UHGV virus genome: UHGV-0465656
From: a virus
Direction: 5' to 3' (one strand)
Length of the DNA stretch: 39,758 nt
The notes beneath the pieces were generated by a model. The model did no database searches. It saw nothing but the letters and a program-made list of their open reading frames with translations, and had not been told where the DNA came from. Made by a program: the position numbers and the translations under genes. Shown piece by piece: positions 11,091 through 18,144 of this stretch (its first letter is position 1; the number at the start of each line of letters is the position of its first letter).

Positions 11091-13721
11091 ATGGCTAATT
11101 ACCGTGATTTGTTAGAGCAGGCTGGCGCACGTTACGGTGTGCCAGAAGGGTTGATGACTGCACTGGGTGCCAAGGAGTCTTCTTACAACCCTGCCGCAGT
11201 AAGCTCCGCCGGGGCTGTAGGATTGACTCAGGTCATGCCTGGGACATGGCGTGATATGGGTTATACCGATGAGCAAATGCAAAACCCCGAATATCAGGCT
11301 GACGCTGGCGCGCGCTATCTGGCAAAGATGTACCAGCAGTTTGGTAACTGGCGTGACGCTCTTCAGGCTTATCACGACGGTCCCGGCAACGTTATGAAGG
11401 CAAAGCGTGGTGAATATACGCCAGGACCTGAAGGCCGCGGTTACGTTGATGATCGCTTTGCTCAATGGGCGGGTGACCCGGTGACAGACTCAACAGTCGA
11501 ACAGCGCGCCACCTCTGCAAAGGTACATCCTCAGCAAGACCCTAACAACCCGTTTGCACAACTGGAAGTACAGTCATCCGAACAAGTATCGGCATCAGGT
11601 GTGCAGTCAGACCCAAATAATCCATTTGCTCAGATTGAGCAGCAGGCAGCCAGTCAGCAGCCACCTCAACCCGTAAGTTCTGTCGCACCGAAACCTGTTC
11701 AGCAACAAACAGTTAATCAGGCCAATAATGAACCAGCACGTGAAGAACCATCATTGATGCAACAAGCTGGCGATTGGCTCACAGGTGGTCAAAGTGCAGG
11801 GCAAATTGCAGAGCAGGCTGGTCGTGGTCTGGTAAACATACCATTCGACGTATTACAGGGCGGCGCAAGCCTGATTAATGCAATCAGTCAGGGGCTTGGT
11901 GGCCACAAGGTTTTGGATGATGTTTATCGCCCTGTCGATCGACCGACAGACCCTTACGCACAAGCCGGTGAAACAATTGGTGGGTATCTCCTGCCAATTG
12001 GCACAGCGGCAAAAGCTGCTGGAGCGACAGCAAAGCTCGCAGGAGACATCGGTTCCGCAGGAAACATGATTGCCGGTTCTCTTGCTGATGCTGCAAATCA
12101 GGAGGGTGATTTTGCACAAAATGCTGCCATTAACGGTGGTATCAATATTGGTGCTCAAGGCGTTATTTCAGGTGTCGGGCGCGTTATTGCGCCAAGGGTT
12201 TCACAGGCTCTTGGTGGTGCAGCACTGAATTCTGCTAATGATGTTTCCAGGATGGCAAAGTCAGGTGCTGGGCGTCAGTCAATTGCCAGTCAGGCCGCTA
12301 ATGTGTCCGAAGATGTAGCAAAAGCGGCTGAGTCTGCTGGAATTGATATAAACGCATTAACACCAGGAATGCGATCTGGAAGTCGTGGAATTGCACAAGC
12401 CGAAGGGATATTGGCATCCGAACCAGGAATTGTTCAGGATGCACATACTAGGGCTTTTAGTGAAATACAGTCGAAATTCCACTCAGCACTTGATGAACTT
12501 GGTGCTGAGGCTGGATCTGCATCAGAAAAAAGTGCAGCCATAAAACAAAGGGTTTTAGCAAGTATTGATAAAATGAAGAACTCAGAAAAGGCAGCATGGG
12601 ATAGCGTCCGCTCCACGATGCCTGACGCAAAGGCCAGAATGTCAAACCTGAACGCTACAATTCAGGGTGATATTTTGGCTGGCATGCCGCTAACTCCTGA
12701 GATGAAACAATTTGCATCTGCTTATGCTAAAACTGGTAAAAAAGGAATCACGTTTGATGCCATGAAGGCATGGCGAAGTAAACTTGCTGACGCTGAGCAG
12801 AAGTATATAAGGTCTGGTGAGGCAAATACGGCAAGGCGCATGGCGGAGCTTCGTGATGCAGCAACGGAAGATATGCGCATAATGGCTCAAAATGGCGGTT
12901 TTCTTGATGACTGGCAAAAAGCTAATGATCTATCAAAAGCAAGATTTACAGCACAAGAACAGGCTGAAGCAGCGTTTAGAAACCTTGCAACTGATCAGTT
13001 AGTCACTGATGGTATTAAAGCCTTGCAAAATTCATCAAAAAGTGGGACAGGAAAGTTTCATCAGATTATTGGCGCACTGCCAGAGTCTGAGCGATCTCCA
13101 GCAATTGCATCAATATTACAAGATGCGGTATCGCAAGGGGTGCGTGGCGGTAAATCAGAGTCTGCTGGCGTATTCCATATAGCGTCGATCCTTACGCCGC
13201 AGAACATTGCTGCCATTAGCAGGCACTCGCCAGAAATGGGTAAGATTGCTAGGGCATACAGCGACCTTGCCAGAGCAGCAACCAGACCACTGCGATATGT
13301 AGAGCATACGGGACGCTCTATACCGGCAATTAACTCTCTTGAGCAAGGACTGCCAAAAGCTGTCATGACAGTACTCAATGCAATAGGCAATTCAACATCA
13401 GGGGCTATTGTTGGTACCACTGGTGGAGGGATTGTTGGCGGTGTTGTGGGGGCTGTTTCTGGATCTATAGCTAAAGGGACGATAGAAAAGTTAGCTGCAT
13501 CCCGCAGTGGTCGTTACGCTATTGAAAAGGCTGTTCAAGAGGCAACAAAGGCAGTTAAGGTTGGGGCAAGTGATGGTGCATTAGCGGCGGCTGAACGCAG
13601 ATTTATGGCAAATAAGGCCGCCGTAAAAGCAATACGCGATGCAGTTGGAAACGAAGAGTTCCAGCGTTTGTCGAGGGCTGGGATTGTCGCCTCGTTAAGC
13701 GGTATGAATGAATATGAATAG
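11091..13721 (+). CDS. Ejection protein (gp16 position) with N-terminal lytic transglycosylase (SLT) domain; 876 aa
   Basis: N-terminal SLT signature [34 protein letters not shown]; DPNNPFAQ duplicated; internal AT-rich segment ~12300..13560. Confidence 0.75.
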
Positions 13722-13723
13722 CT

Positions 13724-14209
13724 TTATCTAATGTTGCTGCTACTGTTGCATGTGACGGTGTTTCCAAATCCTGAATTGCAGTTTGTATATGTGTCAACGC
13801 GTGTTGGGTAAGGTTGAGTTATAACAGGCTGGCGCGCTTTTTGCTCGATCGCTTGCATTGTGTTTACAGCCTGATAATTCAATAAAGCCTGCTGGAATGC
13901 TTGGCTTTGCGCTATTTGTTGGGCTTGTTCTTGGCTTTGTAATTGAACATAAAGATTCTGAAGCTCAAGTCTTGCCTGTGCGTCACTTATCTTGCCTTCA
14001 TCGACACCTTGCCCGAGCATCTTCGCAGCAAGGACATACAGCTTAGGTGTTGGTGCTGATGCCATGCGTGAGTCGTTCTTCACGCTGGCATCAAGGCAAT
14101 TAGCCATATCACTAAGCTTTGGATAGCGTTGTTCGCAACTTGCTTGGTAGTCACTTACTTTTGCGCATCCAGCCAGCAGAAGCGGGATAATTAACAGTGA
14201 TTTTTTCAT
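13724..14209 (-). CDS. Lipoprotein (signal peptide + lipobox LLAGC), Q-rich coiled-coil, unknown function
   Basis: MKKSLLIIPLLLAGCAK..; last gene of the mnt operon; convergent with the ejection-protein gene stop 2 bp away. Confidence 0.7.
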   Translation of the reverse strand: MKKSLLIIPLLLAGCAKVSDYQASCEQRYPKLSDMANCLDASVKNDSRMASAPTPKLYVLAAKMLGQGVDEGKISDAQARLELQNLYVQLQSQEQAQQIAQSQAFQQALLNYQAVNTMQAIEQKARQPVITQPYPTRVDTYTNCNSGFGNTVTCNSSSNIR

Positions 14210-14213
14210 ATGG

Positions 14214-14459
14214 TTAACTCTCCTTAGTTTTGCTCATGATCCCATTCATGTCTTTTGGTAGATACTTATGAATTGGCCAATCCATGAACGCAAGTGCTAG
14301 CCACGCAACCACGTTGAATCCAGGGATTGTTAAACATACCGCCATCTTCCAGTCAAAACCAGCTTTCTTAGATATTTTTAAAGCAGGTATAAAAAAGATG
14401 AAAACGAAAAAAATCACCATAATAATCAATGATAATGGCGACCCTTGTTGTTGCTCCAT
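14214..14459 (-). CDS. Small membrane protein (two predicted TM helices), unknown function
   Basis: Hydrophobic stretches LSLIIMVIFFVFIFFIPAL and VVAWLALAFMDW; AT-rich; immediately follows mnt. Confidence 0.6.
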   Translation of the reverse strand: MEQQQGSPLSLIIMVIFFVFIFFIPALKISKKAGFDWKMAVCLTIPGFNVVAWLALAFMDWPIHKYLPKDMNGIMSKTKES

Positions 14460-14461
14460 GG

Positions 14462-14704
14462 TTATCCTCCATCTCTTACACGTTTTAACACATCAATAGC
14501 TACATCAAACGCCTCTTGCTCAGACTTTGTCAGGATTCGACTACTTGAAGGTATTAGCTGCCCTTTATGAATTTTTATCCATAGTTCGATAGCTGAAATA
14601 ATCTCTGCGTTTATCGAGCGGCGATTTGTTGCAGCAATATGCGTAAGTTGCTGTTTTATCTCATCAGGCATTCTTACGTTGAATTGTGGATCATTTCTAG
14701 CCAC
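14462..14704 (-). CDS. mnt: Mnt-like ribbon-helix-helix repressor (GTG start)
   Basis: (M)ARNDPQFNVRMPDEIKQQL..NRRSINAEII resembles recalled P22 Mnt; AGGAG 6 nt upstream of GTG. Confidence 0.8.
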   Translation of the reverse strand: MARNDPQFNVRMPDEIKQQLTHIAATNRRSINAEIISAIELWIKIHKGQLIPSSSRILTKSEQEAFDVAIDVLKRVRDGG

Positions 14705-14723
14705 GTCGTTCTCCTTTTGTTTG

Positions 14724-14766
14724 TTGACATGCTAGAACGGTAGTAGTACACTTTCAATAGTAGTAC
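14724..14766 (+). promoter_or_regulatory. Pant-like promoter (-35 TTGACA 14724..14729, 17-bp spacer, -10 TACACT 14747..14752) overlapped by two direct TAGTAGTAC repeats (14741..14749, 14758..14766)
   Basis: Divergent intergenic region between mnt and arc; repeats overlap -10 and start region. Confidence 0.55.
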
Positions 14767-14797
14767 GGTACTATCAACGAGTGAAATGGAGTTGAAT

Positions 14798-14956
14798 ATG
14801 CAAGGTGCAAGAAAAATGCCTCAGTTCAATTTGCGGTGGCCTAAAGAAGTATTGGATTTGGTGCGCAAGGTAGCTGAAGAGAACGGGCGATCTGTTAACT
14901 CTGAGATTTACAAGCGAGTGTTGGACAGCCTGAAGAGAGAAGGGATAACGGTATGA
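14798..14956 (+). CDS. arc: Arc repressor (52 aa)
   Basis: MQGARKMPQFNLRWPKEVLDLVRKVAEENGRSVNSEIYKRVLDSLKREGITV, near-identical to recalled P22 Arc; below ORF-track size cutoff. Confidence 0.9.
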   Translation: MQGARKMPQFNLRWPKEVLDLVRKVAEENGRSVNSEIYKRVLDSLKREGITV

Positions 14957-15174
14957 GGTTTATTGAGGTTGATGAGATTGGCTATGAGAATGCACTTGGT
15001 AGAGGTAAATCTTTAGTTAACATTGATGGCATTGAATCGATAAGGAGTGGTGAATTTACGGAGATCAGAATGATGTCAGGCGGAATCATTCCTTGCCGTG
15101 ACTCAGTAGAGTCAATCAAATCAAAAATGAGTGGTCAGTGGCTTTATAGCTACAGTGACTTACAAAAACAGTGA
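14953..15174 (+). CDS. Hypothetical protein (73 aa) between arc and ant
   Basis: ATGA overlap with arc stop; no recognisable motif. Confidence 0.4.
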   Translation: MRFIEVDEIGYENALGRGKSLVNIDGIESIRSGEFTEIRMMSGGIIPCRDSVESIKSKMSGQWLYSYSDLQKQ

Positions 15175-15204
15175 AGCCCCAACTGCGGTAACAGTCAGGG
15201 CTTC
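15173..15204 (-). terminator. Candidate terminator hairpin for an antisense (sar-like) RNA in the orf73-ant junction
   Basis: Stem GAAGCCC/GGGCTTC with inner ACTG/CAGT; on minus strand followed by ACUGUUUUUG. Confidence 0.3.
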
Positions 15205-15236
15205 GGTATCAACAAAACTTACGAGGTATTATTGAT

Positions 15237-16127
15237 ATGTCAAGCTTAGCAAAGTCAACTGTAAATTGCACTAATAGCATCATCATTTCCGACGTCAAGA
15301 TTCATATGGATTCAGAGGGGCGTTACTCGCTTAATGACCTTCATGTAGCGTCTGGGAAGGAGGAAAAACATCAGCCAGCTTTCTTCATGCGTAGAAATGA
15401 AACTATTGAATTGATTAATGAAATTTTTAATTCTGCGAATATGCAGAATAAGAATCCCGTCATTTCTAAGAAAGGTCGATATGGTGGAACCTATGTGTGC
15501 AAGGAGCTTGTTTACTCCTACGCCATGTGGATTAGCGCAGCATTTGCGCTGAAGGTTATCCGTGCATATGACGCAATGGTTACTGCCACACAGGAGAGGA
15601 AGACTATTGGCGGTAAAACTTCAGTAGCTGAACGCACACCGCTACGCGATGCAGTAAACATGCTGGTAGGAAAGAAAGGACTTCGCTATGACGATGCATA
15701 CAATATGGTTCATCAGCGTTTTGGTATTGACAGCATTGATGAACTTTCAATTGAACAAATCCCGCTGGCCGTAGAGTACATCCACAGGGTAGTGCTTGAA
15801 GGTGAGTTCATCGGCAAACAAGAGAAGAAAGCAAACGAGCTTTCTGCAAAAGAAGCAAACAGCCTTGTATGGTTATGGGATTATGCCAACCGTTCACAGG
15901 CATTATTCCGCGAACTGTATCCGGCGCTAAAACAAATTCAATCGAACTATTCCGGCAGATGCTACGACTACGGTCATGAATTCTCGTATGTTATCGGAAT
16001 GGCGAGAGACGTTTTAATCAATCACACACGAGATGTTGATATTAATGAGCCAGACGGACCAACGAATCTTTCCGCATGGATGAGACTTAAGAATAAAGAA
16101 TTACCTCCTTCAGTACATAACTACTGA
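15237..16127 (+). CDS. Antirepressor-like protein with KilA-N-type N-terminal domain
   Basis: Position after arc as P22 ant; 296 aa; N-terminal [33 protein letters not shown]. Confidence 0.6.
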
Positions 16128-16146
16128 CAGATAACCAACGCAACGA

Positions 16147-16170
16147 CCCAGCTTCGGCTGGGTTTTTTTA
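16147..16170 (+). terminator. Rho-independent terminator (CCCAGC-TTCG-GCTGGG + T7)
   Basis: Perfect stem, TTCG tetraloop, TTTTTTTA; downstream of ant-like gene. Confidence 0.8.
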
Positions 16171-16227
16171 TGCCCAAAATTCACCGTAGCCACGCTGCGG
16201 CGATTCCTTGCATCTGGAGCAAATTAA

Positions 16228-18144
16228 ATGACAGACATTACAGCTAATGTGATTGTATCGATGCCTTCGCAACTCTTCACTATGGCTCGTTCTTTTAAAG
16301 CCGTAGCCAATGGAAAAATTTATATCGGTAAAATTGACACTGACCCGGTAAATCCCGAAAACCAGATTCAGGTTTATGTGGAGAACGAAGACGGCTCTCA
16401 CGTTCCTGTTTCGCAACCAATCATCATTAACGCTGCTGGTTACCCGGTATATAACGGACAGATTGCTAAGTTCGTAACTGTGCAATGCCATTCTATGGCT
16501 GTTTATGATGCGTATGGATCGCAGCAGTTCTATTTCCCTAATGTGCTGAAGTATGACCCTGATCAACTTTCTTCGCGCTTATCATCTGATGATGGTGCTT
16601 CTTATATTTCATTTAAGAAGCCTTATGCTGATGCTGCAACCAGAAAAGCATCTGACTACTTTAATCAGGAAATTAATGTAGATGACTTTGGTGCGTATGG
16701 CGATGCCTACTTATTGAACGGAGAAGATAACCTAAGCAAGCATGACGACACACACGCATTTCAGGCCGCTCTGATTGCTGCGTGGCGTGCAGGTGGTGTT
16801 AAAGTAGTAGCCACTCCGTGGAAAAGCTATTACATCGCCGGTAAAGTTTATGTGTTGGCTTCAGAATCTCCATCTGACATTGAAGAAACTAATTTCCCTA
16901 ATCGTCGGGTGCAAGTGATCGATTTTCAGGGCGCTCGCATCGTAGGCCGCGACGATACTTCCGACGAAAATAACGTATTCATTGAGACTGGTTATATAGC
17001 TTCTAGTGGTGCTATATCTTCTGTATTTGGAAAGTCTGGTGAAGAGTATCTAACCATAGGAACAATAATTCGCAATGCCACACTGATTAATTTCTATCAG
17101 GGGTTACGTTTGCGGAATCATGTATTTGGATGCGAGGTTACAGATATTGTTGGAGTAAATGTCCAGCAGTTGGTTTACACTCAGCGCTGCTTTTACTCTT
17201 TATTTCGCAATCTTCAGTGCAATGGTACATATACTACTGGTCTGCATCGCTATCACTTTACTGATGAATGCAACATTCAGCCATTAGTATCGGTTCACAC
17301 AGGAGAGTGTGATGTAGGTTTTAAGTTTGAAGGTGCGGTAGAGGCACTTACGCTGTTCAACTGTGGTATTGAAAGTTTTCGTACTCACGGTGTTTGGATT
17401 GCAGGTGCATATAACATCAAGTTTGATTCATGCTACATAGAGTCAAACGAAAGCAATGTGTATGGGGTTATAGCAACGAGCGCAAATAACATTACGCTGG
17501 ATAACTGCTGGATTTACGGTAGCAGTATGAAAATGTTTGGTGCATTCGACGACAATACCAACGTAAGAATTATGCCTAATAACCGTATTGGAGGAGGGGC
17601 AGTTTGGTGGGACCTTAACGAAGGGTCTCCGTACAACCTTTCCGACATTCACTGGCAAACAGATATAAAACCAGGCGGTACAACACTACCTGCTGCATCC
17701 GCTAAAGAGGCCAGCACAGTAGACCAGACTATAGTTTTCTACCACCCGGATTTAGGACTTAGTTCAGTTGTAGGGAAAGCCAAACAGACCAGTAAATACC
17801 ACCCGCAGCTTGTTAACGGCAAAATGAGTAACGGTAGCTCTGCTGCACATACAGTTGGCGCAAGTGTCTCTACAGAGGTTTCAGGTTCAGACACTAGAGC
17901 AAAATGGACAACGCAAATACAATACTCTGATACACAGCTTATTTTTTTAGCATTGAAGATAGATCATAACTTGGGGACATGGTTTTGGTTAGGTGTTGTG
18001 GCAGGAGATAAAGCGATGGTTATTTCAACATCTGATGAATCAAAGACTCCGGTTATAAGTAATGAAAATGGGTTTGTCGTAGTAGAGAGTCCGCTTCTTA
18101 TGACGCCAATAAATGTTCATGGTGGAGAAATAAGATTGCTATAG
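16228..18144 (+). CDS. Tailspike protein: conserved P22-type head-binding domain (aa 1-~110) fused to a divergent receptor-binding domain
   Basis: N-terminus [60 protein letters not shown] matches recalled P22 gp9; remainder unlike P22 and AT-richer. Confidence 0.9.

Follow-up and report, generated by a model that had tools for sequence, protein, structure and literature searches.

A predicted sar antisense RNA, orthologous to that of phage P22, opposite the antirepressor leader of a P22-like phage

We analyzed the virus genome UHGV-0465656 over a stretch of 39,758 nucleotides, hereafter the window, and found opposite the leader of its antirepressor gene, ant, a member of the known sar family of antisense RNAs. 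With a probability that we put at roughly 80%, the minus strand at 15165..15236 encodes an orthologue of the sar RNA of phage P22, which would mask the ribosome-binding site of ant. This reading is based on family membership, on the structure and its conservation, on the strand bias of the folds, on the terminator, and on the positional homology of the promoter. In P22, sar has been known since 1987 as an RNA of 68-69 nt that represses the synthesis of Ant. Its transcription, its RNA ends, and the translational repression of Ant were reportedly established by Liao et al. and Wu et al. in 1987 and by Schaefer & McClure in 1997. To our knowledge, the sar RNA has been demonstrated for P22 only. 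There, it was recently redetected by small-RNA sequencing of the infection (PMC13397905). The differences between the window and P22 that are described below leave the kind of system unchanged. The sar finding is ordinary in its biology, is already known, and adds nothing unexpected; the main gain is one of annotation, namely a complete immI region with a KilA-N/P22_AR_C antirepressor and a predicted antisense regulator.

The window is from a P22-like phage (podovirus), and its immI region is complete. When the 1.5-kb query 14700..16230 was compared with deposited genomes, Salmonella phage vB_SemP_Emek (JQ806763) showed 98.4% identity over 100% of the query; P22, epsilon34, and many other Lederbergvirus genomes gave only piecewise matches. 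At the left of the region, an mnt-like repressor gene is located on the minus strand at 14462..14704 (Pfam Arc-like domain, 1.8e-12), and its equivalent in Emek is annotated mnt. The promoter scan placed two overlapping divergent promoters within 14724..14757, which are Pant on the plus strand (TTGACA-17-TACACT) and Pmnt on the minus strand (TTGAAA-17-TAGCAT), and the 5-nt offset of this pair equals the geometry of the annotated P22 pair. The first gene of the ant-carrying Pant operon is arc (14798..14956, plus strand; Pfam Arc, 1.8e-26), and here also the Emek equivalent is annotated arc. The arc stop codon overlaps, as ATGA, the ATG of orf73 (14953..15174, plus strand), an extra ORF of 73 codons between arc and ant that matched PHROG 11805 (function unknown) and no Pfam family. 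The stop codon of orf73, TGA at 15172-15174, lies at the base of the sar terminator, and the predicted 3′ end of sar overlaps the last codons and the stop of orf73. The initial annotation had compared this site with the arc-ant junction of P22. It is indeed the junction before ant, but the upstream gene is orf73, which is inserted after arc. From the orf73 stop to the ant ATG at 15237, the junction measures 62 bp (15175..15236).

The putative target of sar, ant (15237..16127, plus strand), encodes 296 amino acids with a KilA-N domain at the N-terminus (Pfam, 6.8e-20) and a P22_AR_C domain at the C-terminus (Pfam, 3.5e-29), and PHROG anti-repressor families matched it as well. A strong terminator (16145..16164) follows downstream of ant, and then comes the tailspike gene. 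In Emek, the closest deposited genome, sar is unannotated and ant is labelled “(Defective?)”. Although it is marked as possibly defective, the Emek ant is a complete KilA-N and P22_AR_C antirepressor gene.

The region 14400..16400 was scanned against all Rfam families, and the whole 39.8-kb window was scanned at the gathering thresholds. The sar model, RF00262, matched 15170..15235 on the minus strand with 62.8 bits against a gathering score of 43 (E = 4e-12). The match was full-length, covering model positions 1-68 of 68, and RF00262 was the sole Rfam family to attain its gathering score anywhere in the window. The matched segment has the opposite orientation to ant. It stops 2 nt short of the ATG of that gene and includes GAGG (15224-15227), the ribosome-binding site of ant, 9 nt before the ATG. 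Several sub-threshold Rfam matches (ctRNA_pGA1, RsaJ, DUF3800-VIII, STnc370, istR, and snoRNAs) were rejected as generic hairpin shapes. Among them, the ctRNA_pGA1 match was weak (24.3 bits against a gathering score of 45) and mirrored the hairpin-plus-U-tract shape only. Our own covariance model, R1, gave 84.2 bits to the predicted RNA of ~71 nt at 15165..15236 (minus strand). By analogy with P22, its 5′ end would be A15236, and its 3′ end is predicted to fall somewhere in the U run 15168..15164. The 71-nt stretch 15236..15166 of the minus strand folded at −29.1 kcal/mol (z = −6.0), and 0 of 200 shuffles were equally good.

The predicted RNA has two stem-loops. Stem-loop II, at 15173..15204 on the minus strand, is an intrinsic terminator hairpin of 14 bp, seven of which are G-C, with a 4-nt loop of UUAC. 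Read on the minus strand from 15204 to 15173, its sequence is GAAGCCCUGACUG-UUAC-CGCAGUUGGGGCUUC, after which comes ACUGUUUUUG; the U tract UUUUU (15164..15168) begins 4 nt past the stem. The terminator scan lists this hairpin on the minus strand together with its U tract, and a stable G+C-rich stem-loop followed by a run of U is what characterizes an intrinsic terminator. The hairpin alone folded on the minus strand at −21.9 kcal/mol (z = −6.9; 0 of 200 shuffles equally good) and is a feature beyond chance. Base for base, it is identical (100%) to the annotated sar terminator of P22 (BK000583, 15021-15058), and everything to the left and right of it differs in the alignment to the P22 and epsilon34 records. 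The nested hairpin that the initial annotation had noticed in the junction before an ant-like gene, at 15173..15204, was thus confirmed by the sequence, the fold, and the terminator scan, and the U-rich tract that it had reported past the hairpin on the minus strand is present. Its proposal of a sar-like antisense RNA gene at the start of ant is upheld as a prediction by the RF00262 match and by the identity with the P22 terminator.

Stem-loop I, at 15208..15236 on the minus strand, begins directly after the complement of the ant AUG. It consists of eight basal pairs, from A15236-U15208 to A15229-U15215, then a U-U mismatch, and then two inner pairs, A15227-U15217 and C15226-G15218, which close a 7-nt loop of CUCGUAA. 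The 5′ half of the window sar, which contains this stem-loop, reads AUCAAUAAUACCUCGUAAGUUUUGUUGAUACC. At the 5′ edge of loop I is the anti-Shine-Dalgarno sequence CCUC (15224..15227, minus strand), whose plus-strand counterpart is the GAGG of the ant ribosome-binding site. The first C of this motif (C15226) takes part in the inner stem, and loop I opens with the other bases.

The P22 record (BK000583) annotates the sar RNA at 15021-15090 and Psar at 15097-15125, in addition to the terminator named above. The sar of P22 and that of the window occupy the same position in immI, antisense to the ant leader and ribosome-binding site, and the start, which is a predicted one in the window, is beside the complement of the ant AUG. 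They also share the two-hairpin architecture, with folding energies of −29.5 kcal/mol for the annotated 70 nt of P22 and −29.1 kcal/mol for the window. In contrast, the 32-nt 5′ half differs, beginning with AUCAAUAAU in the window and with GUUGGUUUU in P22, where the corresponding sequence is GUUGGUUUUUCUCCAAGGAUUUACUGACAACC; the stem is nevertheless kept by compensatory changes, shifted by one base. Further differences are found at +1, which is predicted to be A in the window and is G in P22; in the U tract, which is longer in the window; in the gene overlapped by the sar 3′ end, which is orf73 in the window and arc in P22; and in the N-terminal domain of the target Ant, which is KilA-N in the window and P22_AR_N in P22. 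In epsilon34 (EU570103), a P22-like phage with an intact immI (PMC2629481), the sar, its terminator, and Psar are annotated by similarity. Unlike the window, epsilon34 carries the P22-type 5′ half together with a P22-type Ant and is without orf73.

Homologues were gathered in three ways, which were a scan of IMG/VR with the hairpin pattern, a scan of IMG/VR with the Psar motif, and a protein search with the KilA-N N-terminus of Ant. A lack of conservation of the hairpin among relatives had been named at the outset as one result that would speak against a sar-like RNA; the hairpin is both conserved and covarying. In the set obtained with the hairpin pattern, its invariance is partly by construction, as the hairpin was itself the search pattern. 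The sequence upstream of it in the RNA was compared in the same set by per-sequence folds, and each of the 33 distinct 5′ halves forms the equivalent of stem-loop I from +1 onwards. A stem starting at +1 is present also in 42 of the 42 diverse full-length variants listed, and a CCU/CUCC motif occurs in loop I of every variant in both groups. Pair 4 of stem-loop I was seen as A-U, G-C, G-U, U-A, and U-G, and 64 of the 65 basal cells of the hairpin-anchored set are paired, compared with 17-46 of 65 in shifted registers. With the promoter as the anchor, 30 distinct terminator hairpins with compensatory changes were obtained. All KilA-N Ant relatives with at least 62% amino acid identity and a covered N-terminus have a sar match that ends no more than 2 bases from the ATG. 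An exact-hairpin scan of genome contigs returned a single locus, in Pectobacterium, which made too small a sample to be used.

Alignment by MAFFT followed by RNAalifold recovered the invariant hairpin only, since stem I was misaligned because of the varying length of the spacer between the stems; per-sequence folds and a covariance model were used instead. The covariance model was built from nine sequences and aligned 68 homologues, 64 of them distinct. In this alignment, which was fitted to the structure and so leans towards it, 96.2% of cells are paired, and double-sided changes occur in 12 of the 21 pairs, spanning both stems. The observed values were reached by 0 of 500 shuffles, and slid registers are at most 45% paired. 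For stem-loop I, double changes were found in six of the seven model pairs. Many of the IMG/VR loci are closely related, and the counts overstate the number of independent events.

The strand bias of the folds is a test that is independent of the alignment fitting. Of 30 distinct variants of stem-loop II, 29 fold more stably on the sar strand, and so do 44 of 45 variants of stem-loop I. In the window type, stem-loop I reaches −5.7 kcal/mol on the sar strand versus −2.3 kcal/mol on the other strand. On the sar strand, three pairs of the window hairpin are wobbles (U-G, G-U, and the loop-closing U-G), and the hairpin is weaker on the plus strand because these become A-C mismatches there; alone, it folded on the plus strand at −16.0 kcal/mol (z = −4.5). 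Of the hairpin-anchored variants, only L039 lacks a T run after the hairpin; in the others, the run is present whatever the neighboring gene. On the plus strand of the window, the sequence past the hairpin is GGTATCAAC, with no T run.

The annotated Psar of P22 consists of GTGTTA-17-TATACT preceded by TGC, which makes an extended −10, and transcription starts (+1) 7 nt past this −10. In P22, Psar is reported to be activated by Pant. The annotated element aligns to 15243..15271 on the minus strand of the window. As a candidate extended −10, the window has TGC-TAAGCT at 15243..15251 (minus strand), with TG at 15251-15250 and the −10 hexamer TAAGCT at 15248..15243. This element lies in ant codons 3-5 (AGC TTA GCA) and aligns to TGC-TATACT of P22, so that the −10 hexamers read TAAGCT in the window and TATACT in P22. 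A −35-like GTGCAA (15266..15271, minus strand) is located in ant codons 10-12 at a spacing of 17 nt and is the positional equivalent of the P22 GTGTTA. The candidate Psar of the window lies at the same ant codons as that of P22 and likewise has a TGn extended −10. Its match to consensus is 3/6 for the −10 and 3/6 for the −35, or 6/12 overall, plus the TG. TAAGCT is the weakest −10 among the 13 types compared; at the −35, the P22 GTGTTA scores the same 3/6 as GTGCAA.

None of the 13 types and none of the KilA-N Ant relatives departs from T-12, A-11, or T-7, and the −10 variants within the KilA-N Ant family are TAAGCT, TAAGAT, TAAACT, and TATACT. The −35-like GTGCAA is conserved among the KilA-N relatives, and the G at −9 of the window is due to a synonymous change of AGT to AGC at Ser3. 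In nearly all types, the −10 falls in ant codons 3-4, the TG in codon 5, and the −35 in codons 10-12, and almost every type has a TGnTAnnnT skeleton at a distance of 7 nt from the predicted +1, despite the presence of four different Pfam families at the Ant N-terminus. Judged from these comparisons, a −10 that varies while T-12, A-11, and T-7 stay constant would be the pattern expected of a working −10 element. The initial annotation had proposed a search for a minus-strand promoter around 15240..15280. The alignment of the P22 Psar places a candidate there, whereas a simple sigma-70 scan reported no minus-strand promoter near 15240-15280. The same scan applied to P22 misses both the authentic Psar and the authentic sar terminator, and its silence therefore carries little weight against Psar. 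The skeleton TGNTANNNT is no more frequent in the window than expected (59 matches versus 72), so that the case for the promoter comes solely from positional homology and conservation. From its sequence, Psar of the window is probably a weaker promoter than its P22 counterpart and might even be dead.

A dead Psar would be the starting point of the rival reading that survives best, which we nevertheless consider unlikely. According to it, sar is a relic whose promoter has decayed from TATACT to TAAGCT and which yields little or no RNA; the hairpin would have been kept as an exchange junction or for the mRNA, and ant would be controlled by Arc and Mnt only. The 3/6 score of the window −10, the weakest seen, and the equally low score of the −35 fit this reading. 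So does the finding that at least eight left and several right modules adjoin the hairpin in every combination, as recombination alone could spread and homogenize the hairpin. However, the sole lineage-specific change in the promoter is A-9 to G, which is synonymous and affects a weakly conserved position of the −10, and the TGn, T-12, A-11, and T-7 are intact. Moreover, stem-loop I lies outside the shared junction and is kept by compensatory changes, with the sar-strand bias in the window type too, and the U tract of the window is better than that of P22.

A second rival, which we regard as highly improbable, concerns the start point. A shorter antisense RNA of ~45 nt might start near 15210 and contain the terminator hairpin only, leaving the ribosome-binding site uncovered. 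Its promoter would be an alternative promoter-like site at 15216..15243 (minus strand), where TTGACA at 15243..15238, overlapping the ant start codon, is separated by a 16-nt spacer from TAAGTT at 15221..15216. This site, with a perfect −35 and a −10 of the TAnnnT form, matches consensus at 9/12, compared with 6/12 plus TG for Psar. Yet the TTGACA and TAAGTT hexamers occur in no other type, and the nearest diverged relatives with the same Ant (L214-L216) have TGTCAT or TGCCAT and CTGATT at these places; such an RNA would, in addition, be without the conserved stem-loop I and the anti-Shine-Dalgarno sequence.

There is equally little chance that the hairpin acts mainly on the plus strand, as a processing site, a stabilizer, or an attenuator of the Pant or a late transcript, and that the antisense reading is incidental: the plus strand folds too, as stated, and the P22 ant mRNA leader is reportedly structured (Schaefer & McClure in 1997), but no T run follows on that strand, the two internal wobbles and the closing wobble turn into mismatches there, the folding energies favor the sar strand in all but one of the 30 hairpin variants, and the T run on the minus side is kept, L039 excepted, whatever gene adjoins.

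Under the preferred reading of a P22-type sar, control of ant would proceed as follows. Psar, a weak sigma-70 promoter with an extended −10 that lies within codons 1-12 of ant, would start a leftward transcript at about A15236, adjoining the complement of the ant AUG. Termination at the 14-bp hairpin and its U run (15204..15164) would leave a two-stem-loop RNA of ~71 nt. Every base of this RNA would have its complement in the orf73-ant leader of the Pant mRNA, with the Shine-Dalgarno sequence GAGG as part of the complementary stretch, and the pairing of sar with this leader would hide the ribosome-binding site, with the result that less antirepressor would be made. sar would in this way add an RNA layer to the control by Mnt and Arc. 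We take the transcription of the locus, the exact RNA ends, and the translational repression from the P22 precedent, and with P22 as the guide, it is most likely that the sar RNA prevents the antirepressor from being translated.

Among the other short cis-antisense RNAs known to mask a ribosome-binding site are RNA-OUT of IS10, CopA of plasmid R1, and OOP of phage lambda. These RNAs resemble sar in being small, structured, constitutively terminated, and placed opposite the 5′ leader of their target, and their pairing is expected to begin from an exposed loop, as for sar. They differ from it in belonging to sequence-unrelated families and in having other targets.

The hairpin with its U tract (15164..15204) was also compared for its surroundings across loci L004-L123. 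On its left are at least eight different sequences, including the ends of arc, of orf73, and of other ORFs, and on its right are several types of ant and sar 5′ sequence. Other phages, for instance, have P22-type, Bro-N-type, and further ant genes linked by the hairpin to the end of orf73. The left and right modules occur in all combinations, from which it follows that the hairpin marks a hot junction of mosaic exchange. The “bsq2 boundary sequence” of CUS-3 was considered as support for the hairpin and discarded, being a 482-bp feature that is not hairpin-specific.

A comparison of the window with loci L001, L005, L012, L039, L044, and L124 revealed a common Ant leader, M-x-S-[ILV]-A ... N-(C)-T, which precedes P22_AR_N, Bro-N, KilA-N, and ORF6N domains alike and corresponds in the window to 15237..15275 (ant codons 1-13). 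All three Psar elements (−10, TG, and −35) fall within the codons of this leader. As Psar lies within a leader that is common to four N-terminal domain families, the comparison suggests that the N-terminus of Ant is under a constraint from the antisense promoter. Tentatively, and at somewhat less than even odds, we propose that the sar unit is a portable cassette, in which the near-invariant terminator hairpin would serve as the pivot for swaps of the left-hand sequences (the arc end, orf73, and at least six other ORF ends) against those on the right, and Psar would constrain the N-terminus of otherwise unrelated antirepressors. If this proposal is true, the window is one instance of the cassette, with a slightly weakened −10. 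Three by-products of the analysis are modestly useful for studies of phage mosaicism and for the design of antisense control elements: the strong covariation of the two stems together with their strand bias, the placement of the promoter in a conserved Ant leader that four domain families share, and the hairpin as a pivot of exchange.

At three distant KilA-N loci, a second match to the sar model was observed 400-900 nt upstream of the KilA-N gene, at 1030-1106 in L225, 748-823 in L227, and 566-625 in L231. These matches suggest additional sar-like elements or other nearby ant-like genes.

Beside mnt, the “ant moron” of the window contains two leftward ORFs that are without a Pfam match. One, at 13724..14209 (minus strand), encodes a 161-aa protein with a lipoprotein-type signal (LLAGC), and the other, at 14214..14459 (minus strand), encodes a hydrophobic protein of 81 aa; their placement is like that of the superinfection-exclusion genes of P22-like phages. 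Directly before the ant moron, the ejection-protein block ends with an 876-aa protein (11091..13721, plus strand) that has an SLT lytic transglycosylase domain at its N-terminus.
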